Of a DNA stretch of 64,000 bases, positions 243 through 54,579 are shown in pieces (the stretch's first letter is position 1; each line of letters starts with the position of its first letter). This DNA comes from Mobula birostris (lineage: Eukaryota): assembly GCF_030028105.1 (NCBI RefSeq), contig NC_092378.1, forward strand, positions 99,561,731-99,625,730, in the 5' to 3' direction. A program made the position numbers and the translations under genes. The notes under the pieces were generated by a model. That model searched no databases. It was not told the DNA's origin and saw only the letters and a list, made by a program, of their open reading frames with translations.

Positions 243-2855
243 AGACTGTAAGACCATAAGACAAAGGAGCAGAAGTTGGCCATTCAGCCCATCGAGTCTG
301 CTCCGCCATTTTATTATGAGCTGATCCATTCTCCCATTTAGTCCCAATCCCCCACCTTCTCACCATAACCTTTGATGCCCTGGCTACTCAGATACCTATC
401 AATCTCTGCCTGAAATACACCCAATGACTTGGCTTCCACTGCTGCCCGTGGCAGGAAATTCCATAGATTCACCACCCTCTGGCTAAAAAGATTTCTTCGC
501 ATTTCTGTTCTGAATGGGCACCCTTCATTCCTTAAGTCATGCCCTCTCATACTAGACTCCCCCATCATGGGAAACAACTTTGCCACATTCACTCTGTCCA
601 TGCCTTTCAACATTCGAAATGTTTCTATGAGGTCTTCCCTCATTCTTCTAAACTCCAAGGAATACAGTCCTAGAGCGGACAAACATTCCTCATATGTTAA
701 CCCTCTCATTCCTGGGATCATTCTAGTGAATCTTCTCTGTACGCTTTCCAATGTCAGCACATCCTTTCTTAAATAAGGAGACCAAAACTGCCCACAGTAC
801 TCCAAGTGAGGTCTTACCAGTGCCTTATAGAGTCTCAACATCACATCCCTGCTCCTATACTCTATTCCTCTAGAAATGAATGCCAACATTGCACTCGCCT
901 TCTTCACCACCGACTCAACCTGGAGGTTAACCTTAAGGGTATCCTGTACGAGGACTCCCAAGTCCCGTTGTAACTCAGAACTTTGAATTCTTTCCCCATT
1001 TAAATAATAGTCTGCCCGTTTATTTTTTCTGCCATAGTGCATAACCATACACTTTCCAACATTGTATTTCATTTGCCACTTCTTTGCCCATTCTTCCAAT
1101 CTATCCAAGTCTCTCTGCAGACTCTCCGTTTCCTCAGCACTACCAGCCTCTCCACCTATCTTCGTATCGTCAGCAAACTTAGCCACAAAGCCATCTATTC
1201 CATAATCTAAATTGTTGATGTACAATGTAAAAAGAAGCAGCCCCAACACGGTTACCTGTGGAACACCACTGGTAACCGGCAGCCAACCAGAAGAGGATCC
1301 CTTTATTTCCACTCTCTGTTTCCTGCCAATCAGCCAACACTCTATCCATGTATGTAACTTTCTCATAATTCCATGGGCTCTTATCTTGTTAAGTAGCCTC
1401 ATGTGTGACACCTTGTCAAAGGCCTTCTGAAAATCCAAATATACAACATCCACTGCATCTCCCTTGTCTAGCCTACTTGTAATTTCCTCAAAAAATTGTA
1501 ATAGGTTTATCAGGCAGGATTTTCCTTTGAGGAATCCATGCTGAGTTCTGCCTGTCTTGTCATATGCCTCCAGGTACTCTGTAACCTCATCCTTGACAAT
1601 CGACTCCAACAACTTCCCAACCACGGATGTCAAGCTAACAGGTCTATAATTTCCTTTTTGCTTCCTTGCCCCCTTCTTAAATAGCGGAGTGACATTCGCA
1701 ACCTTCCAGTCCTCCGGAACCATGCCAGAATCTATTGACTTTTGAAAGATCATCGCTAATGCCTCTGCAATCTCCACAGCTACTTCCTTCAGAACATGAG
1801 GGTGCATTCCATCTGGTCCGGGAGATTTATCTACCTTTAGACTATTCAGCTTCCTGAGTACTTTCTCTGTCGTAATTGTGACTGCGCACACTTCTCTTCC
1901 CTGCCACCCTTGGGTGTCTGGTATACTGCTGATGTCTTCCTCAGTGAAGACTGATGCAAAATACTCGTTCAGTTCCTCCGCCATCTCCATTACAATTTCT
2001 CCAGCATCATTTTCTATCGGTCCTGTATCTACTCTCACCTGTCTTTTACTCTTTATATACTTGAAAAAGCTTTTAGTATCCTCTTTGATATTATTTGCTA
2101 GCTTCCTTTCATAGTTAATCTTTTCCCTCTTAATGACCTTCTTAGTTTCCTTTTGTAAGCTTTTAAAAACTTCCCAATCCTCTGTCTTCCCACTAATTTT
2201 TGCTTCCTTGTACACCCTCTCCTTTGCTTTAACTTTGGCTTTGACTTCTCTTGTCAACCACAGTTGCATCCTTTTTCCATTCGAAAATTTCTTCTTTTTT
2301 GGAATATACCTGTCTTGCACCTTCCTCACTTCTCGCATAAACTCCAGCCACTGCTGCTCTGCCGTCTTTCCTTCCAATGTCCCTTTCCAGTCAACTTTGG
2401 CCAGTTCCTCTCTCATGCCACTGTAATTTCTTTTACTCCACTGAAATACCGACACATCAGATTTCGGCTTCTCTTTTTCAAATTTCACAGTGAACTCAAT
2501 CATGTTATGATCACTGCCTCCTAAGGGTTCCTTCACCTCAATCTCTCTAATCACCTCCGGTTCATCACACAATACCCGATCCAGTACAGCCGATCTCCTA
2601 GCGGGCTCAACAACAAGCTGTTCTAAAAAGCCATCTCGCAGACATTCTACAAATTCTCTCTCTTGAGATCTAGTGCTGACCTGATTTTCCCAATCCACTC
2701 GCATGTTAAAATCCCCCACAATTATCATAACACTGCCCTTCCTACAAGCCTTTTCTATTTCCTGTTGTAATTTGTAGTCCACATCACTGCAGCTGTTTGG
2801 AGGCCTATAATAACTGCCATCAGGGTCCTTTTACCCCTCCGATTTCTTAGCTCAA
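243..2855 (-). mobile_element. CR1-clade LINE, 5'-truncated
   Basis: Contains the 814-aa ORF. The 3' UTR has a short tandem tail (+ strand agactgtaagaccataag) at the left end. A possible 4-bp junction duplication actt lies at 239-242 and 2855-2858. Confidence 0.93.
338..2782 (-). CDS. CR1 ORF2 remnant: C-terminal half of APE endonuclease plus reverse transcriptase (uninterrupted, N-terminally truncated)
   Basis: EN motifs GDFN and GSDH; RT motifs KSPGPDG, NYRPVSLTS, QHGF, YLDFQKAFDKV, SGVPQ and FADD; CR1-type C-terminus (LVRPHLEYC...RGHDL...VVNLWN). Confidence 0.92.
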   Translation of the reverse strand: MDYKLQQEIEKACRKGSVMIIVGDFNMRVDWENQVSTRSQEREFVECLRDGFLEQLVVEPARRSAVLDRVLCDEPEVIREIEVKEPLGGSDHNMIEFTVKFEKEKPKSDVSVFQWSKRNYSGMREELAKVDWKGTLEGKTAEQQWLEFMREVRKVQDRYIPKKKKFSNGKRMQLWLTREVKAKVKAKERVYKEAKISGKTEDWEVFKSLQKETKKVIKREKINYERKLANNIKEDTKSFFKYIKSKRQVRVDTGPIENDAGEIVMEMAEELNEYFASVFTEEDISSIPDTQGWQGREVCAVTITTEKVLRKLNSLKVDKSPGPDGMHPHVLKEVAVEIAEALAMIFQKSIDSGMVPEDWKVANVTPLFKKGARKQKGNYRPVSLTSVVGKLLESIVKDEVTEYLEAYDKTGRTQHGFLKGKSCLINLLQFFEEITSRLDKGDAVDVVYLDFQKAFDKVSHMRLLNKIRAHGIMRKLHTWIECWLIGRKQRVEIKGSSSGWLPVTSGVPQVTVLGLLLFTLYINNLDYGIDGFVAKFADDTKIGGEAGSAEETESLQRDLDRLEEWAKKWQMKYNVGKCMVMHYGRKNKRADYYLNGERIQSSELQRDLGVLVQDTLKVNLQVESVVKKASAMLAFISRGIEYRSRDVMLRLYKALVRPHLEYCGQFWSPYLRKDVLTLESVQRRFTRMIPGMRGLTYEECLSALGLYSLEFRRMREDLIETFRMLKGMDRVNVAKLFPMMGESSMRGHDLRNEGCPFRTEMRRNLFSQRVVNLWNFLPRAAVEAKSLGVFQAEIDRYLSSQGIKGYGEKVGDWD

Positions 2856-10597: not shown

Positions 10598-10950
10598 AGA
10601 GACGCAGCCCGAGACTGATATACCAGCCGTAAACAAACTTCTGACAAAAGTTTCTTTTCCAAGTTTTCCTAAGCAGCCGTCCGGCGTGTATCGAAGGCGA
10701 TTTGACAGTGTAGTTTTGTGTCTCCATGGCCGCCGCCCGCTGGTTCCCTGTTCAACGTATCTCTTCCCAGTGATACTTTATTTAATTCCCCATCCCGAAA
10801 CACGTGGCCTTAATATAGGAATTCCGAGTTCAGAAACGAGCACTATCTTGAACTTCTGATTTCCCATTATTTGGAAACTTGCATTGCTTTTGAGTTTCTT
10901 GCAATTTCAATGCACCCTTGGCGTCTGCGGTGAACCGGTTTGCCAAGTCG

Positions 10951-11372
10951 ATGCTGAACATGACGGAGGAACACGGGCAGGGGGCGGCCAATGCGGGCTG
11001 CAGCCCGGCCTGCAGCGGCTCCGACAGTGAGTCGGTGGGATCGCCGGGGTCGGTGTCCGAGGGCGAGCCTCAGCCGGAGGACTGCAGCCGCTCGCTGCCC
11101 GCTGCCGTCGCCAGCAAGAAGTTGGGCTGCGAAGAAGACGAGCGTTTCCCAGCCTGCATACGAGAGGCGGTCAGTCAAGTGTTGAAGGGCTACGACTGGA
11201 CTCTGGTGCCCATGCCCGTGAGGATAAACGGCACTTCCAAAAACAAGCCCCACGTTAAGAGACCCATGAACGCCTTCATGGTGTGGGCTCAGGCTGCCCG
11301 GCGCAAACTGGCGGACCAGTACCCGCATCTTCACAACGCGGAGCTCAGCAAAACTCTGGGCAAACTCTGGCG
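10951..11372 (+). CDS. sox8: SoxE transcription factor Sox8, coding exon 1 (dimerisation domain and N-terminal HMG box)
   Basis: ATG 10951, MLNMTEE...[26 protein letters not shown]...[42 protein letters not shown](R). Donor cg|gtaagg at the conserved SoxE intron position (phase 2). Confidence 0.95.
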
Positions 11373-11545
11373 GTAAGGATGGCCTGTCGGCTCGTATCTG
11401 GTTTCATCGTAATCAAATTACCAGCGGTAGCGGACCGGTTTGAACTTTCCACTGCCAGTGTTTCCGCGGCATCGGGGCGACCTGAACGCGAGTCAGCACA
11501 AATGGAGGAGCAGCGCCCTTTAGCTGTGGCCGTTCTATCTGCTGT

Positions 11546-11666
11546 AGGAACTCAGCAGCATCTGTGGGACGAAAGGAATTGTCGGTATTTCGTATCGAAG
11601 GAGTTTCGACCCGAGGCACCAACGATTCCTTTCTCGCCACAGATGCTGCTCGCCCGCTGAGTTCCT
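11546..11666. mobile_element. Degenerate palindromic PLE-terminus mini-element in sox8 intron 1
   Basis: Arms ggaactcagcagcatctgtgg..gaaaggaattgtcggt and accaacgattcctttc..ccacagatgctgc..gctgagttcct resemble the 3385-3622 element. Confidence 0.7.
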
Positions 11667-12074
11667 CCACCAGATTGTTGCTCGAAATTGCGGTATTTCC
11701 ATACGCACCTTCCCCACTCTGAATTACCCGGCAACCAACATACCCCCACCCACCACCACCACGGGGTCATCGAAGTGGTAGTCCTTCGCGAGGGGAAACT
11801 GCCCCGGCCGTATTGTAGCACTGATAGACTAAAGGAGATTTTTATAGGCGATCCTCTCCACAGGGACACTCTGCCGAGGGTATGAGTAATTTGTCGGCGT
11901 ACCCCGCACCTTAGGCTAAACCTCCCTTGGTTTCATGACATTGCCCTGATTTCATCCAACTCCTCCGTGTTCATTCCCGCGTTGGCAGTTTTGGTGATTG
12001 CGTCGATCTTGGATGGGCAGTGAGAACGCTTCCGTTTATGGGGTTAGTTAGTCATTCTTCCGCCAATACCTCCC

Positions 12075-12180
12075 AGACCTATAGATGCCGTCTGACCCGC
12101 TGAGTTCGCCCGGCATTTTGTGTGGCGTGGTGTGGTGTGTTGCTCTAGATTTCCAGCATCTGCGGTCACTCTCGTGTGTA
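12075..12180 (+). mobile_element. Single PLE-terminus fragment in sox8 intron 1
   Basis: atagatgccgtctgacccgctgagttc...gcattttgtgtg...ttccagcatctgcgg matches the PLE 3' end. Confidence 0.7.
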
Positions 12181-12575
12181 GGTTGAGCAGGTTCAGCTGA
12201 CGAGACTCTGCCCGCAGAGGGAACGCGGCTGCTGTCCGAACAAGGGAAATGGGCGGAGAGCAGAAGCGGAACCCACTGCCTTTCACTCTCAACGCGACTG
12301 CAAGGGAAAAAGTAGAATTTGTCAAGAGATACAATTGCTTGTCTTTTCATTATCAGAATTGAGTGGCGCAGATAAGACCCCGCTGGTGATCTAGGGAGGA
12401 GGGATTAATCTGTTTCCAGATTTTGTGTCCAAAACCGTTGATTTGTCCAGTATTAGACGAGGTGACGGGGAGACTCAAGGTGAATTTGGATTTTGTTCAG
12501 TAAAACATTTCAAAGGGGTATTAAGTACTGGAAGGGAATACTAGGAAAAGGGCGGGGTATCGGGATAGTTCAGCG

Positions 12576-12730
12576 TGCTGGAGGAACTCTGCAGGTTGAG
12601 CAGCACCTGTGAGCAGTCCTGAAGTCGGGTTTCGATCGACAGTTTCTTTCCTCTCACAGATGCTGCTCGACCTATTGAGTTCCTTCAGCAGGTTGTTCGT
12701 TGCTCCCGAATCCAGCATCGGCAGTCTCTT
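12576..12730. mobile_element. Degenerate palindromic PLE-terminus mini-element in sox8 intron 1
   Basis: Inverted arms tgctggaggaactc...gagcagcacctgtgag and ctcacagatgctgctc...gagttccttcagca. Confidence 0.7.
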
Positions 12731-12819
12731 GCGTCGCAGAGATCATCCAAGGTGGTTCGATTAGGGTGGTGAGTCCCCCAGGCTCGCACTGACTCTCTGC
12801 TCGTGTCTCCCTTTGACAG

Positions 12820-13061
12820 CCTGCTGAGCGAAAGTGAAAAGCGTCCCTTCGTGGAAGAGGCCGAGCGCCTGCGGGTACAGCACAAGAAGGACCACCCCGA
12901 TTACAAGTACCAGCCCCGCCGCAGGAAGAGCGTGAAGAACGGGCCGCCCGACTCCGAACAGGGCGCTGAGCAGAGCCAGCTGGCCGTCGGCCAGGTGTAC
13001 AAGGACGGCCTGTCGGCAGGGAGGGGAGTCTCCGACGGCCACCACCCGCCAGAGCACACAG
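12820..13061 (+). CDS. sox8: Sox8 coding exon 2 (C-terminal HMG box)
   Basis: Acceptor ctccctttgacag|c; [37 protein letters not shown]...HPPEHT; donor acag|gtgagg (phase 1). Confidence 0.95.
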
Positions 13062-14362
13062 GTGAGGCGCAGGGCGCTTGTGAGTGGGAAGTCGATGAAG
13101 AGAGCGAGGGTAATACCGCCAGTCTGGGGACAAAGCGGAGTCACCCCGTTCATTCTGTATCAACCGAACCTATAACTAGATTACTGGCGGGACACCATTC
13201 ATTTTGCCCACATACTTGTACTGAAGAACCCCTAGATCTGTCACAATACAACGTAGTCTAAGCTCAGAGATAAAAGTGTCTAATCATCATTCAAGTTGGC
13301 CACAATATCGGGTTGGGTTGAGGAGCCTCTGCCGTTCTGTTTACCACAAAGAGATAATATTTCTTCTCATCCACGTTAAAATAAAATCTCAAAATTTTAC
13401 AGGTACTCGGACGGTCAGTCACATCCGTAAAAAGAGAGACGGAGTTAATGTTTCATGTCGAACACCCTTTTATTTTAATTTTCTAGTGAAAACATTAAAC
13501 TTCCTTCTTTTTCTCATACTGTCACAAGGACACGCTTTCAATTCACGATACATTCGGCCCTTGGGACAAGCTTGGGTCAAAGACAGAGATAATATGGACC
13601 GTCCAATTTATTTAAATGTGTGCACAAAACAGAGCGGTTAATACGGTTTGGATTGTTTTTAGTTGCATTTTAACCACTTCACAGAATTGTTGAAAGTTTT
13701 GAACAGCTGGCAAAGAGCTCTGCTGGGCGATTAGCAGTGTCCAGATTGTCTTCCTAACGGCAGGGGAGGTTAAAAGAGTCAATAATGTGTTTTATAAAAT
13801 GAATACGGTAGTTTCAATTGGCAAGAGAGCCGGGTAACCAGAGGGATGTAGAACAGTGAGAATGATTTTTCCCACTGCTTTCACATTCTGCAACGGCCTA
13901 CCCCAAGAGACAGTGGGAACAGTTTCATCAGCAGGCTAGCGCCCAGGTACCAGTGGACACCACCAGTGACAGCCTCTCAAACACTTCCTCTCTGCTTTGT
14001 CTGGGCAGATGAGTGCTGTTTGGATTAATGTTTTGAATTTATGTTATAACACACGTAGGGAAAGATGTACAATCATACCTACTTTATGTCATGTATATTT
14101 TTAAAGAAATATATAACAAATCAGTTTCAGCACCAAATTTTGAAGGGAATTTCAGAGAGACTGGAAAGGAAAGTTGGTGGAAATGCAGTGTCAGGGTAGA
14201 GATGCAGGATGGAGTGACTGACCAGGACAGGTTCAATGATCAGGGACCTCCCTCTGTTTTGTGTGATTTTAAGAGCTAGCTTCTCTTCCTGTGGCTGTAG
14301 TGTAATTGTTTGCTCTGTTTCTGACTTCTGTAGTAAAGGCCTGTCCTTTTGTTCTTAACCAG

Positions 14363-15087
14363 GCCATGCACAAGGGCCCCCAACACCACCCACCACACCC
14401 AAAACTGACCTTCATGTGGGGAAGCATGAGCTGAAGAGGGAGGGGCGTTCCATAGCGGAGAACGGCCGCCAGAACATTGACTTCAGCAACGTGGACATCA
14501 GCGAGCTGAGCAGTGAGGTCATCAACAACATGGAGACCTTTGACGTCCATGAGTTTGACCAATACCTACCACTGAATGGCCACACGGTGCCCTTCTCCTC
14601 TGACCATAGCCATGGACTGAACACGGCCGGCTCATACAGTGCTTCCTACCTAACCAGCAGCGCAGCCCAGGTCATCTGGAATCATAAGAGCGCCTCATCT
14701 TCATCATCCTCTTCATCAGTCGCCAGTGAACCAAGTCAGCATAGGCCGCACATTAAGACAGAACAGCTGAGCCCAAGCCACTACAATGACCAGCATCATG
14801 GCTCTTCACCTCAAGCTGATTATAGTTCCTACAGTAATCAGGGTTGCAGTCCTGTCAGTGCTACTGCTACTGCCTTTTCTGGCTCCCAGTGTGACTATTC
14901 TGATGTCCAAGGCCCCAATTACTACAACCCTTATTCTGGATACCCATCACCCATCTATCAATATCCTTATTTTCATTCATCTCGCCGTCCTTATGCATCA
15001 TCCCTCCTGAATAGTCTGTCCATTCCTCCAGCCCACAGCCCAACCAACTGGGATCAGCCAGTCTACACAACCCTGACTAGGCCATAG
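14363..15087 (+). CDS. sox8: Sox8 coding exon 3 (K2/TAM and C-terminal transactivation domain)
   Basis: Acceptor ttgttcttaaccag|gc; GHAQGPPTPPTTPKTD...QNIDFSNVDISELSSEVI...FDVHEFDQYLP...IKTEQ...SRRPY...WDQPVYTTLTRP-stop. The spliced CDS is 422+242+725=1389 nt (462 aa). LLSES, NIDFSNVDISELS and the C-terminus favour Sox8 over Sox9 or Sox10. Confidence 0.95.
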
Positions 15088-39284: not shown

Positions 39285-40667
39285 AGAAACATAGAAACGT
39301 AGAAAATAGGTGCAGGAGTAGGCCATTCGGCCCTTCGAGCCTGCACCACCATTTATTATGATCATGGCTGATCATCCAACTCAGAATCCCGCCCCAGCCT
39401 TCCCTCCATACCCCCTGACCCCCGTAGCCACAAGGGCCATATCTAACTCCCTCTTAAATATAGCCAATGAACTGGCCTCAACTGTTTCCTGTGGCAGAGA
39501 ATTCCACAGATTCACCACTCTCTGCGTGAAGAAGTTTTTCCTAATCTCGGTCCTAAAAGGCTTCCCCTTTATCCTCAAACTGTGACCCCTTGTTCTGGAC
39601 TTCCCCAACATCGGGAACAATCTTCCTGCATCTAGCCTGTCCAATCCCTTTAGGATTTTATACGTTTCAATCAGATCCCCCCTCAATCTTCTAAATTCCA
39701 ACGAGTACAAGCCCAGTTCATCCAGTCTTTCTTCATGTGAAAGTCCTGCCATCCCAGGAATCAATCTGGTGAACCTTCTTTGTACTCCCTCTATGGCAAG
39801 GATGTCTTTCCTCAGATTAAGGGACCAAAACTGCACACAATACTCCAGGTGTGGTCTCACCAAGGCCTTGTACAACTGCAGTAGTACCTCCCTGCTCCTG
39901 TACTCGAATCCTCTCACTATAAATGCCAGCATACCATTCGCCTTTTTCACCGCCTGCTGTACCTGCATGCCCACTTTCAATGACTGGTGTATAATGACAC
40001 CCAGGTCTCGTTGCACCTCCCCTTTTCCTAATCGGCCACCATTCAGATAATAATCTGTTTTCCTATTTTTGCCACCAAAGTGGATAACTTCACATTTATC
40101 CACATTAAATTGCACCTGCCATGAATTTGCCCACTCACCCAACCTATCCAAGTCACTCTGCATCCTCTTAGCATCCTCCTCACAGCTAACACTGCCACCC
40201 AGCTTCGTGTCATCCGCAAACTTGGAGATGCTGCATTTAATTCCCTCATCCAAGTCATTAATATACATTGTAAACAACTGGAGTCCCAGCACTGAGCCTT
40301 GCGGTACCCCACTAGTCACCGCCTGCCATTCTGAAAAGGTCCCGTTTATTCCCACTTTTTGCTTCCTGTCTGCCAACCAATTCTCTATCCACATCAATAC
40401 CTTAGCCCCAATACCGTGTGCTTTAAGTTTGCACACTAATCTCCTGTGTGGGACCTTGTCAAAAGCCTTTTGAAAATCCAAATATACCACATCCACTGGT
40501 TCTCCCCTATCCACTCTACTAGTTACATCCTCAAAAAATTCTATGAGATTCGTCAGACATGATTTTCCTTTCACAAATCCATGCTGACTTTGTCCGATGA
40601 TTTCACCGCTTTCCAACTGTGCTGTTATCACATCTTTGATAACTGACTCCAGCAGTTTCCCCACCAT
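39285..40667 (-). mobile_element. Young 5'-truncated CR1 LINE
   Basis: Octamer tail (+ strand atagaaac atagaaac gtagaaa); flanking near-duplication catctatagaa (39278-39288) and catctatggaa (40665-40675). Confidence 0.93.
39381..40667 (-). CDS. CR1 ORF2 C-terminal RT portion, open frame of 428 aa (truncated)
   Basis: QHGF, YLDFQKAFDKVPH, SGVPQGSVLG, FADD and LVRPHLEYC with no stops. Confidence 0.88.
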   Translation of the reverse strand: MVGKLLESVIKDVITAQLESGEIIGQSQHGFVKGKSCLTNLIEFFEDVTSRVDRGEPVDVVYLDFQKAFDKVPHRRLVCKLKAHGIGAKVLMWIENWLADRKQKVGINGTFSEWQAVTSGVPQGSVLGLQLFTMYINDLDEGIKCSISKFADDTKLGGSVSCEEDAKRMQSDLDRLGEWANSWQVQFNVDKCEVIHFGGKNRKTDYYLNGGRLGKGEVQRDLGVIIHQSLKVGMQVQQAVKKANGMLAFIVRGFEYRSREVLLQLYKALVRPHLEYCVQFWSLNLRKDILAIEGVQRRFTRLIPGMAGLSHEERLDELGLYSLEFRRLRGDLIETYKILKGLDRLDAGRLFPMLGKSRTRGHSLRIKGKPFRTEIRKNFFTQRVVNLWNSLPQETVEASSLAIFKRELDMALVATGVRGYGGKAGAGF

Positions 40668-45714: not shown

Positions 45715-46655
45715 AGCCATAGAGTGGTACAGCACAAAAATAAGCCCTCTGGGTCGCTGAGTCCACTCTGACCATTAAGCACCCAATTTCACGCTAATCC
45801 TATCCGAACCCATTTTATTCCTCACACATTCCCATTATTCACCTTTCCCCTCCCATTCCTGATTCTACCACTTACCCAGAAACTTGAGGCAATCTTACAC
45901 AGTCTAATTAGCCCACCTGCCCACATTTTATTAGGATGTGGAAGAAAGCAGGAGCATCTGGGAGAAACCCTTGCAACGGCAGAATGTGCAAACTCTACAG
46001 TCATCACTGGATAACGGGATCAAACTCTACAGTCATCACTGGATAACGGGATCAAACTCTACAGTCATTACTGGACAACGGGATCAAACTCTACAGTCAT
46101 CACTGGATAACAGGATCAAACTCTACAGTCATCACTGAACAACGGGATCACACTCTACTGTCATCATTGGATAACAGGATCAAACTCCACAGTCATCACT
46201 GGATAACAGGATCAAACTCTACAGTCGTCACTGGATAACGGGATCAAACTCTAAAGTCATCACTGGATAACAGGATCAAACTCTACAGTTGTCACTGGAT
46301 AATGGGATCAAACTCTACAGTCGTCACTGGATCACAGGATCAACCTCTACAGTCATCATCGGACAACAGGTTCAAACTCTACAGTCATCACTGGACAACA
46401 GGATCAAACTCTACAGTCATCACTGGATAACGGGATCAAACTCCACAGTCATCACTGGACAACGGAATCAAACTCTACAGTCATCACTGGACAACAGGAT
46501 CAAACTCTACAGTCATCACTGGATAACAGAATCAAACTCTACAGTCATCATTGGACAACAGGATCAAACTCTACAGTCATCACTGGACAACAGGATCACA
46601 CCCAGGTCACCGGAGCAGTGAGGAGCAACACAAGCAGCCCCACCGCTGTGCTGTC
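45715..46655 (-). mobile_element. V-SINE-like element with internal minisatellite
   Basis: V-domain reverse complement at 45930-45995; tRNA head (caggatcacacccaggtc...) at 46590-46655. Confidence 0.75.
45989..46596. repeat. Minisatellite, 19 x 32 bp (caaactctacagtcatcactggataacaggat)
   Basis: Unit starts at 45989, 46021, 46053 ... 46501, 46565, an exact 32-bp phase with substitutions only. Confidence 0.95.
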
Positions 46656-50655: not shown

Positions 50656-51036
50656 TTGATTAGGAGTAGTCAGCTTGTCTTTGTGCTTAGAAGACCAAGA
50701 AAGATGATGAAGGCAGGAGGGTAGACTTAAGTAAGGACTTCAGTAAAGCTTTTGATAAAGTTCTACAGGGCAGGCTTCATTGGAAGGTTAGCTCTGCAAG
50801 AGATTCAGGGAGATCTAGCTAATTGTATACACAATTGGCTTGATGGTAGAAAGCAGATGGTAAGGAGAGAACGTTGTTTCTCTGGCTGGAGGTCGGTGGC
50901 TGGTGGTGTGCCCCAGAAGTCAGTGTTGGCCCTTTGTTGTTTGTCATCTATATCAACAATTGGGATAGTAATGCACAAGGCATGGTTAGTGAATTTGCAG
51001 ATGACATTAAAATAGGTGGTGCAGTGGACAATGAAG

Positions 51037-51936
51037 TGTCATAAAGGCGCATTGGGAGCAGATCCAAATGCAAGACACAGACACTGAAGTACTAGGAACA
51101 GATCAAGGTTTATCAAGAAAGCAAGGGGAGTCAAGAGGAAACGATGCTGGACATGGGCACAGGCCCTGGACAAGACAAGGACACTGGGCCTGGGCTAGGA
51201 CTAAGACTAGGAACGCGGGACCAGGACAAGGAGCTAGGAACTAGGAGCCTGGGCTAGGACTCTGAGCGAGAGACTGGACAGGGACCCGGAACCTGGGTCT
51301 TGACTCGGGCTCAGACCCTGGATCTTGGCAAGGACAAGACGTGGCTACAGGACTGGACGTGGAACTCCTGCACAGGACGAGGCACACGGACAGGACAAGA
51401 ACACAAAGCCTTGACTTGGACAGGACGAGGTTCTTGGACTTGGCTTGGACTAGACGAGGGAACAGGACGAGGGAACTCCTGAGCTGGGCGAGGAATCTCC
51501 TGGGCTGGGCGAGGAACTCCAGCACAGGACACGGCTGTAGGACAAGGTTTGGCTTGGTTCTTGGACTAGGCTTTATTAGGCTCTTGGGTAGGGAGCCGGG
51601 ACTCCTTCTTGGTGCGCAGGGCCGGGACCCTCCTCGGACACAGAGCCGGGACCCTTTCTAGGACGCAGGGCTGGGATGACTGCTGAGGATACTTGCCGAG
51701 GTGACTGCCGAGGTAAACTGCCGAGTAACTGTCGGGGATTTGGATGGGGAGGGGAAGGAAACAGTCCAGCTGGGAATCCTTGGTTTGCAGAGGTATTTAT
51801 GTGCCAGCCTAAAACGAGAATCAGGTGCCTCAAATAAGGCATCCAATGGAACAAGCGGAAACAGGAAAACCCAGAATAAGGATCGGTGAACTGGACTGTG
51901 AACCGGAATGTGGATTTCACGGACTGGACCATGACA
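51037..51936 (-). repeat. 3' LTR (900 bp)
   Basis: tgtcat...atgaca termini; preceded on the - strand by the G-rich PPT (51941-51967); collinear with 52114-53414. Confidence 0.88.
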
Positions 51937-52113
51937 GTAACCCGCCCCCGCGCCCCCCCCCCCCCCCATGGGACCCTCCTGATGACTGAACCGGGTCTCC
52001 AGGACTAAGGACGACATAGGCGGGTGGGAGGTATTCAACAGGAGGGAACCTAGGATGTCGAGAGTTAAATGACAGTGCCTGTGTTGCTGGCTCCATGTAT
52101 GATTGGGCTGTTC

Positions 52114-53414
52114 TGTCATACCATGGATGTTGATGGTGGATGCAAGACACAGACACTGAAGTACATGTTTGTACTTGGAACAGGACAAGGTTTATCAAGA
52201 AAGCAAGGGGAGTCAGGAAGAAATGACGCTGGACATGGACACAGGCCCTGGATGAGATAAGGACACCAGGCCTGGGTGAGGACTAAGACTAGGAAAGTGG
52301 GACCAGGACAAGGAACTAGGAACTAGGAGCCTGGGCTAGGACTCTGAGCCAGCAACTGTACAGGGACTCGGATCTGGGGTTTGACTTGGGCTCGGACCCC
52401 GGATCTAGGCGAGGACAAGATGTGTCTACAGGACTGTACGTGGAACTCCTGCACAGGACAAGTCACATGGACAGGATGAGAACACAAAGCCTTGACTTGG
52501 ACAGGATGAGGTTCTTGGACTGGGCTTAGACAAGACGAAGTTCTAGGACTTGGCTTGGACAAAACGAGGTTCTAGAATGTGGCTTGGACAAGACGAGGTT
52601 CTAGGATGTGGCTTGGACAAGATGAATTTCTTGAACGTGGCTTGGACTAGACAAGGTTCTAGGACGTGGCTTGGACAAGATGAGTTTCTTGAACGTGGCT
52701 TGGACAAGATGAGGTTCTTGGATGTGGCTTGGACAAGATGAGTTTCTTGAACGTGGCTTGGACAAGATGAGGTTCTTGGATGTGGCTTGGACAAGGTGGG
52801 GTTCTTGAACGTGGCTTGGACAAGATGAGGTTCTTGGATGTGGCTTGAACTAGACGAGGTTCTTGGACGTGGCTTGGACAAGATGAGGGACTCCTGGACT
52901 AGACAAGAGAATCCCGGACAGGACAAGAGAATCCAGCACAGGACGAGGGAACTCCAGCACAGGACGAGGAGTCTCCAGCACAGGGCTGGGCGAGGAACTC
53001 CTGGGCTGGGCGAGAAAATCCAGCACAGGACGTGGCTCTAGGACAAGGTTTGGCTCGGTTCTTGGACTCGGCTTGATTAGGCTCTTGGGTAGGGAGCTGG
53101 GACTCCTACTTGGAAGTGCAGGGCCGGGACCCTCCTAGGACGCAGGGCCGGGAACCTTTCTAGGGCGCAGGGCCAGGATGACTGCTGAGGATACTTGCCG
53201 AGGTGAACTGCCGAGGTAACTGTCAGGGATTCAGATGGAGAGGGGAAGGGAACAGCCCAGCTGGGAATCCTTGGTTTGCAGAGGTATTTATGTGTCAGTC
53301 CAAAACGAGAATTAAAGCACTCAATAGAACAAGGGAAAACAGGAAAACCCGGAATAAGGATCAATGAACCGGACCGTGAACCGGAATGCAGATTTCACGG
53401 ACCAGACCATGACA
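52114..53414 (-). repeat. 5' LTR (1301 bp)
   Basis: tgtcat...atgaca termini; TATA-like ATAAATA on the - strand at 53291-53285; longer than the 3' LTR because of a tandem expansion. Confidence 0.88.
52490..52890. repeat. 29-bp tandem array within the 5' LTR (gtggcttggacaagatgaggttcttggat), about 13-14 units
   Basis: Unit starts at e.g. 52695 and 52724; only ~2 units at the equivalent place in the 3' LTR (~51412-51460). Confidence 0.88.
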
Positions 53415-54579
53415 GGAAGAAGGTTATCAAAGACAACAGGGAGATTGTGATCAGCTGAATTGGTGGGGCAAGGGATAGCAAATGGAGTTTAATTTGGATA
53501 AATGCGAGGTGCTGCATTTTGGAAAGTCAAATCCCAGTAGGACTACACTGTGAATGCCAGGGCAAGAAGTGTTATAGAACAGAGGGACCTTGGAGTACAA
53601 GTACTTGATTCACTGAAAGTGGAGTCACAGGTAGAATAGATGAAGGCTTTTTTCGCACTGGTCTTCATAAGTCAGAACATTGAGTTTAAAAGTTGGGAGG
53701 TCATAGTGTGGCTGTATAGGGTGCTGGTGAAACCGCACTTGGAGTATGGTGTTCAGCTTTAGTCACTCTGCTATAGAATATATGTTATTAAACTAGAAAG
53801 AGTGTGGAAAAGGTTTACAAGGATGCTGCCAGGTCTTGTTTTCCTGGGACTGAGGTTTAGGACAAGTCAGTACTTTATTCCTAGGAAGATAGAAGACTGA
53901 GAGATTATCTTTTAGTGATATATAAAATTATGTGGGAATAGACAAGGTGAATGCACTCAATCTTTTTCCCTGAGTTGGCGAATCAAGACTACAGAGCACA
54001 GGTTTGTGATGAGAGTGGAAAGATTTAAGAGTAACATGAGGGGCAATCTTTTTATACAAAGGTTGATATTCATGTGGCGTCTACAGCTAGCAGAAGTGGT
54101 TCATACAATGACAAGTTTTAAAAGACAGTGGACAGTTACCTGGATTGGAAAGGTGTAAAAGATTATAGGCCAAACTCTGGCAAATAGGACTAGATTGTAG
54201 GGGGCATCTTGGTCAGAATAGCCCAGTTGGGCCAAAGGGCATGTTTCCATACTGTACATCTCTGTAACTTTATGATTCTATGACTATGTCTCTAAAATGA
54301 ACTTTTCATATGTTCTGTTAGTGTTGAAGCAAAGAGACCAATATATTAGTTTCCTCATATGTACTCCTGTAGAGTTTAAAGCCCAAGGGCACCAACTGTT
54401 CTCTTAACTACTTCCAATATCTGGTGAACTTGCATCAAACTTAAATGGATTTGTACCCACAATAGCTGATTGCTTCTGTTATCAGATGGATTTGGCATGC
54501 TTTCAACCTGCCTGGTAATTGGTGTATGAGGTGATTGCCAATGGGATGAGTGGCTGGCCATTGAAACAGTGAAAGAAGA

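Follow-up and report, generated by a model that had tools for sequence, protein, structure and literature searches.

How can a retroelement that keeps only 177 nt between its long terminal repeats (LTRs), and whose primer-binding site (PBS) lacks the TGG of a tRNA-type site, have been copied and moved? The question is raised by an element on the minus strand of the window (here, the whole 64,000-nt stretch of Mobula birostris DNA that was analysed), where it occupies positions 51037-53414 (2378 nt). Its features, together with the flanking target-site duplication (TSD), are the following.

51032..51036, plus strand: left copy of the TSD, 5 bp
51037..51936, minus strand: 3' LTR, 900 nt
about 51771-51760, minus strand: 3' LTR counterpart of the primer site
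52113-51937, minus strand: interior between the LTRs, 177 nt
51941..51967, minus strand: G-rich polypurine tract (PPT), separated from the 3' LTR by 4 nt (51940-51937)
51968..52012, minus strand: putative remnant of the chromodomain end, just 5' of the PPT (significant in sister copies L048 and L041)
52013..52045, minus strand: putative remnant of the integrase SH3-chromodomain linker (28/34 identical to L104)
52043..52096, minus strand: putative chromovirus gag remnant, first ~18 codons (by alignment, significant in sister copies L048 and L041)
52102..52113, minus strand: PBS, complementary to the element's own LTR site, without TGG
52146..52158, minus strand: U5 arm of a predicted U5-leader stem (shuffle-tested pairing)
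52114..53414, minus strand: 5' LTR, 1301 nt, beginning TGT and ending ACA (coordinates checked)
53250..53261, minus strand: predicted RNA 5' end and self-primer, with a predicted +1 at 53261
53285..53291, minus strand: TATA-like motif ATAAATA, read from the sequence
53415..53419, plus strand: right copy of the TSD, with one mismatch

A first-pass annotation had described two LTRs around only 177 bp, and all its coordinates for them were confirmed, as were its 5-bp TSD (4/5 match), the start of ATAAATA at 53291 and the exact reverse complementarity between the 10 nt after the 5' LTR and positions 53259-53250, a match that is unique within both LTRs. The PPT, which it had placed directly against the 3' LTR, is set off by the 4 nt listed above, a gap also found in coding chromoviruses of the same genome. 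Its 'complete signal set' was an overstatement: the 5' LTR of the window copy is missing part of the U5 stem arm, the proximal part adjoining 52146..52158 being deleted. The two LTRs are identical at 760 of 869 aligned bases (87.5%), and their length difference comes mostly from a 29-nt tandem repeat expanded inside the 5' LTR at 52491-52888. The insertion interrupts a decayed LINE reverse-transcriptase-like sequence, which we take to be CR1-like, and the way it is spaced against the window's other LINE frames would fit a 5-bp duplication. Elsewhere in the window lie long LINE reverse-transcriptase-like open frames (338-2830, minus strand, 830 aa; 39381-40667, minus strand, 428 aa), a 32-nt minisatellite of 19 copies (45989-46598) and, about 36 kb from the element and with no evident link to it, the three coding exons of a Sox8 gene (10894-15087), the last of which reaches 88% identity with SOX8 of shark and electric ray and 73% with that of chimaera; this gene assigns the host to the sharks and rays.

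A DNA search of the 4.0-Gb genome returned 1429 first-look candidates, and all 40 that were scored span LTR, interior and LTR; two junction patterns gave 104 and 97 exact matches, with 0 and 2 for their controls. We collected 141 loci, among which 117 have distinct junctions (a few of them segmental or tandem duplicates), and in 110 of these 117 sampled copies the 3' LTR begins 149-191 nt after the PBS. The 5-bp TSD is perfect in 21 and matches at four of five positions in 8 of the 37 complete non-tandem copies, as compared with 0 and 2 of 111 shifted controls, and the 21 perfect TSDs comprise 20 different 5-mers in copies on many contigs. Since 29 of the 37 carry a TSD of their own, the short form itself transposed; the multiple two-LTR copies with a common short interior and separate TSDs that the first-pass annotation had proposed to look for do exist. 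It is hardly credible that the structure arose by a one-off deletion after insertion or spread by segmental duplication only, a reading that the separate TSDs refute for the family and that the same interior in nearly all copies also contradicts, although tandem arrays are present and one cluster on contig C24, with 27 of the 97 pattern matches, does look segmentally duplicated. This cluster lies in one large, recently duplicated region (G000:C24:54.0-67.3 Mb; L214-L224), and its 11 sampled copies have common flanks, two being identical over 4019 nt; the idea that it represents a young burst was rejected on account of those flanks. The arrays consist of mini elements with single common LTRs and up to four interiors in a row (L226 at G000:C23:44.99 Mb, L227, L232, L228-L231).

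The two LTRs of a copy share 84-93% identity (median 89.5%, n=42), so that the sampled activity is old, and the family, which we estimate roughly at several hundred copies in total, looks long inactive. Across 42 copies the LTRs measure about 0.5-1.5 kb; R+U5 is rich in repeats and, at about 0.7-1.2 kb in most copies, very long. As a separate observation on the LTR ends, 113 of 117 copies have neither AATAAA nor ATTAAA in the 130 nt that end the 5' LTR.

Judged by its alignments, the interior consists of three pieces left over from a sushi-like chromovirus: a gag start, an integrase linker and a chromodomain tail with the PPT. At least five families of coding chromoviruses are present in the genome, and three separate stretches of one of them (L104/L110, with matches to gag/DUF4939, reverse transcriptase, RNase H, integrase, SH3_Tf2-1 and chromodomain) align with the mini interior, namely the PBS followed by ~18 gag codons, the linker that precedes the chromodomain, and the end of the chromodomain together with the PPT. 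For the window copy compared with L104, only the linker exceeds the shuffle maximum (score 38 versus 31), the gag-start piece lying below it; in sister copies L048 and L041 the 5' piece scores 41-57 against shuffle maxima of 33-35 and the 3' piece 44-65 against 32-37. These sister-copy pieces are about 70% identical to the coding family, which makes L104/L110 a relative of the parent and not necessarily the helper. The element itself has no Pol, and its probable placement among chromoviruses comes through its interior relatives, which are nearest to fish Gypsy proteins; related coding elements match fish Gypsy integrases at about 52-70%. A mini subfamily represented by three further loci (L265, L266, L119) is more divergent: its PBS is a different variant and its interior is nearer to the coding family, and the three-piece junction is the same.

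The first-pass annotation had also called for an autonomous sushi-like partner. Its ancestry part stands, as the interior derives from sushi-like chromoviruses of this genome, but a coding element with this LTR was not found: none with the mini LTR or PBS occurred among 30 SH3_Tf2-1 loci or the first 20 longer stretches, with 150 of 5968 SH3 candidates scored, so that the absence of a helper is not established. Pattern searches for such a coding element gave 1, 0 and 3 matches, and all those inspected were short forms. An LTR-like match in L097 (G000:C5:74.42 Mb) was rejected as a coding element's own LTR, since it is a nested insertion: an LTR that resembles that of the second mini subfamily interrupts a copy of a coding chromovirus in its chromodomain tail.

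The pairing between PBS and LTR bears directly on priming. In the window copy the primer-PBS duplex has a z of -4.9 relative to shuffles, and z falls below -2 in 80 of 88 copies, compared with 2 of 88 for a U3-versus-leader control. In 127 of the 131 LTR heads measured, the primer site follows the TATA-like motif at 29-31 nt, a spacing that puts the predicted start at 53261; the LTR match of the first-pass annotation holds, whereas its start does not, as the family-wide duplex is 11-12 bp long and begins at G 53261 and not at 53259. From 175 aligned LTR heads, 172 were read and 147 with a TATA-like motif kept (25 dropped), and PBS type agrees with LTR-site type in 140 of these 147 (2 discordant, 5 unclassified). 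The two mini PBS types differ at three paired positions, as illustrated by GAACAGTCCAGC with GCTGGACTGTTC in L053 and GAACGAACCAGC with GCTGGTTCGTCT in L124. The covariation between PBS and LTR site that had been put forward as a check was therefore found, although on the tree it is, within the family, essentially one evolutionary event, so that its Fisher value is not a probability. Comparison among the five coding families extends it: PBS nucleotides 2-12 pair at 9-11 of 11 positions with the family's own LTR site (seven of nine copies pair at all 11), as compared with 4-8 pairs when the PBS of either of the two families that differ most is set against the other's site or that of a further family; families A and C have the same PBS, which leaves about five independent contrasts. 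Complementarity and covariation together support the Tf1-type self-priming reading of the first-pass annotation.

Could the family instead be primed by a host RNA, such as a tRNA fragment or another small RNA, with the LTR match a relic or serving dimerisation or packaging? The PBS matches tRNA 3' ends at best at 5-6 of 12 positions in a comparison spanning two isotypes (Lys and Gly, 11 distinct genes), a breadth that leaves this reading some room, and the best internal tRNA match reaches 9/12. Against it, none of 117 copies has a TGG among the 8 nt that follow the LTR (a count partly built in, as most copies were chosen by PBS pattern), six different PBS sequences each follow their own LTR site, that site sits at the expected start distance, and the element contains no tRNA- or 5S-like sequence; an Rfam search of the element gave one sub-threshold chance match. 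A further point in favour of host RNA is that PBS/LTR-site mismatches persist in two subfamilies, for primer copying should tend to erase them and their persistence counts against self-priming. About half of Tf1 cDNA has a copy of the PBS at its 3' end, according to a passage in PMC11042837, so the PBS should tend to be corrected. Taken together, we regard host-RNA priming as very improbable.

The mismatches are most evident in the window's own subfamily. A C-A mismatch at the primer site is present in 30 of its 34 LTR heads, and the perfect 10-mer of the window copy depends on a G found in 1 of the 34 heads of its PBS subfamily, a single transition of a kind expected at this divergence. Between the window's 3' LTR primer site and its PBS there are one mismatch and one G-U pair, and base 11 of the PBS is changed as well; a different subfamily keeps a G-U pair in 23 of 24 PBS matches. 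The paired base occurs in 11 of the window clade's 34 copies, in association with a second restored base (Fisher p 0.016), a pattern partly linked to LTR subtype and to be read against 9 of 181 comparable columns that vary as much. One might suppose that most subfamilies self-prime and that the mismatched subfamily of the window borrowed a primer or strong-stop DNA from a co-packaged, better-matched RNA. Copies with the C-A mismatch do have TSDs, the link between PBS state and LTR subtype is a partial one, as template switching would give, and some copies carry dissimilar 5' and 3' LTRs. A co-packaged primer with the same LTR site would, however, leave the mismatch in place, and 10 of 11 pairs may suffice without borrowing, so that we think borrowing very improbable.

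A second predicted stem, which joins U5 to the gag-derived leader (leader arm at 52085-52073, inside the gag remnant), has z below -2 in 82 of 88 copies, compared with 2 of 88 in the control, and is formed by different letters in each coding family. This predicted stem has its counterpart in one of the two flanking duplexes known from Tf1, and the gag codons were probably retained because they supply one of its arms. For the third Tf1 duplex, which involves sequence upstream of the PBS, two candidate pairings reached z below -2 in 5/88 and 1/88 copies, in a test that could miss a short helix. A global fold of the window leader did not form the primer duplex, the method being unable to represent the pseudoknot involved.

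With a mobile family of chromovirus origin, and complementarity that covaries at the expected place, the window element is very probably an old copy of a multi-copy, non-coding LTR family derived from sushi-like chromoviruses, likely self-primed by the first 11 bases of its RNA and likely mobilised by the proteins of coding chromoviruses. By analogy with Tf1, RNA polymerase II would start about 30 nt after the TATA-like motif, at 53261, and the RNA 5' end would fold back onto the PBS, displayed in a loop closed by the U5-leader stem. Helper RNase H would then cut after base 11, the resulting 11-base piece would prime minus-strand DNA and the PPT the plus strand, and integrase would insert the cDNA with a 5-bp duplication, the helper proteins presumably coming in trans from coding chromoviruses of the same genome. 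A bolder joint reading, which we offer tentatively and think somewhat unlikely, is that this vertebrate mini element keeps only the self-priming RNA fold (primer, PBS and gag-codon stem) and is copied by helpers whose own primer sequence differs, which would mean structure-based and not sequence-based recognition; the scattered restoration of PBS-primer pairing would then be a fossil footprint of a PBS recopied from the self-primer and, if so, the first genomic trace of the self-priming reaction in a vertebrate.

What do these findings add? Self-priming has been demonstrated in fission yeast and is only inferred for vertebrate sushi-like elements: passages in PMC6317226 and PMC4600332 describe it for the Tf1/sushi group of yeast and vertebrates, and the latter calls it 'implicated' for vertebrate elements. 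The case for vertebrates is strengthened by compensatory changes that extend over about six PBS types within a single elasmobranch genome, and a 177-nt interior that could still transpose points to minimal cis signals. A full-text literature search found no self-priming non-autonomous LTR family in cartilaginous fish, though Repbase/Dfam, supplements or subscription papers may have one. As self-priming and mini LTR elements are both known, this is a well-supported example of a known mechanism and not a new one. LTR finders based on tRNA will miss such families. No host function is indicated, and the sampled copies are old.

The first-pass annotation had called the element TRIM/LARD-like. LARDs have long, kilobase-scale non-coding interiors, whereas the interior here is 177 nt, and this half of the label falls away. 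Closest in mechanism are Tf1/Tf2 of Schizosaccharomyces pombe and the Tf1/sushi chromoviruses (Ty3/Gypsy; V-clade Sushi-ichi, Amn), with which the mini element has in common a PBS that directly follows the LTR-terminal CA and can pair with 11 nt of the LTR where the RNA is predicted to begin (the Tf1 primer is given as 11 bases in a passage of PMC7175516), a PBS-adjacent stem with U5, chromovirus ancestry, a 5-bp TSD and tandem copies with one common LTR (as in a section of PMC11042837). It differs from this group in having no coding capacity and a very long, repeat-rich R+U5, in showing two of the three duplexes set out for Tf1 and its group in part of bioRxiv 10.1101/2022.12.06.519325, and in the mismatches that persist in subfamilies. 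In organisation it is nearest to TRIMs, in which a short interior without coding capacity likewise lies between two LTRs, contains PBS and PPT and transposes in that form, and which also form tandem LTR-interior arrays and depend on helpers; vertebrate examples listed by Kojima 2024 (a passage of PMC10886601) include LTR-11_DR of zebrafish and LTR1/2_LCh of coelacanth. TRIMs are, however, below 1000 bp in total with repeats of 100-250 bp in the definition excerpted from PMC6934838, against 2378 nt and LTRs of 0.5-1.5 kb here, and their PBS is complementary to a tRNA, whereas that of the mini element is self-complementary, although bivalve TRIMs without a tRNA PBS are also mentioned in that source. 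The interior is, moreover, recognisably derived from gag and integrase, and, unlike Helenus, Ajax and Cassandra (TRIMp3), the mini LTR has no tRNA- or 5S-derived sequence. The elongated non-autonomous LTR derivatives of sugar beet, as portrayed in part of PMC13570524, are similar in being non-coding and longer than a TRIM, with fragmented coding remnants and modular LTR variation, but have tRNA-derived PBS motifs. As far as its letters can tell, the element is one that would work like Tf1 and is organised like a TRIM, while lying outside the TRIM definition in its size and in its PBS, which is not of the tRNA type.
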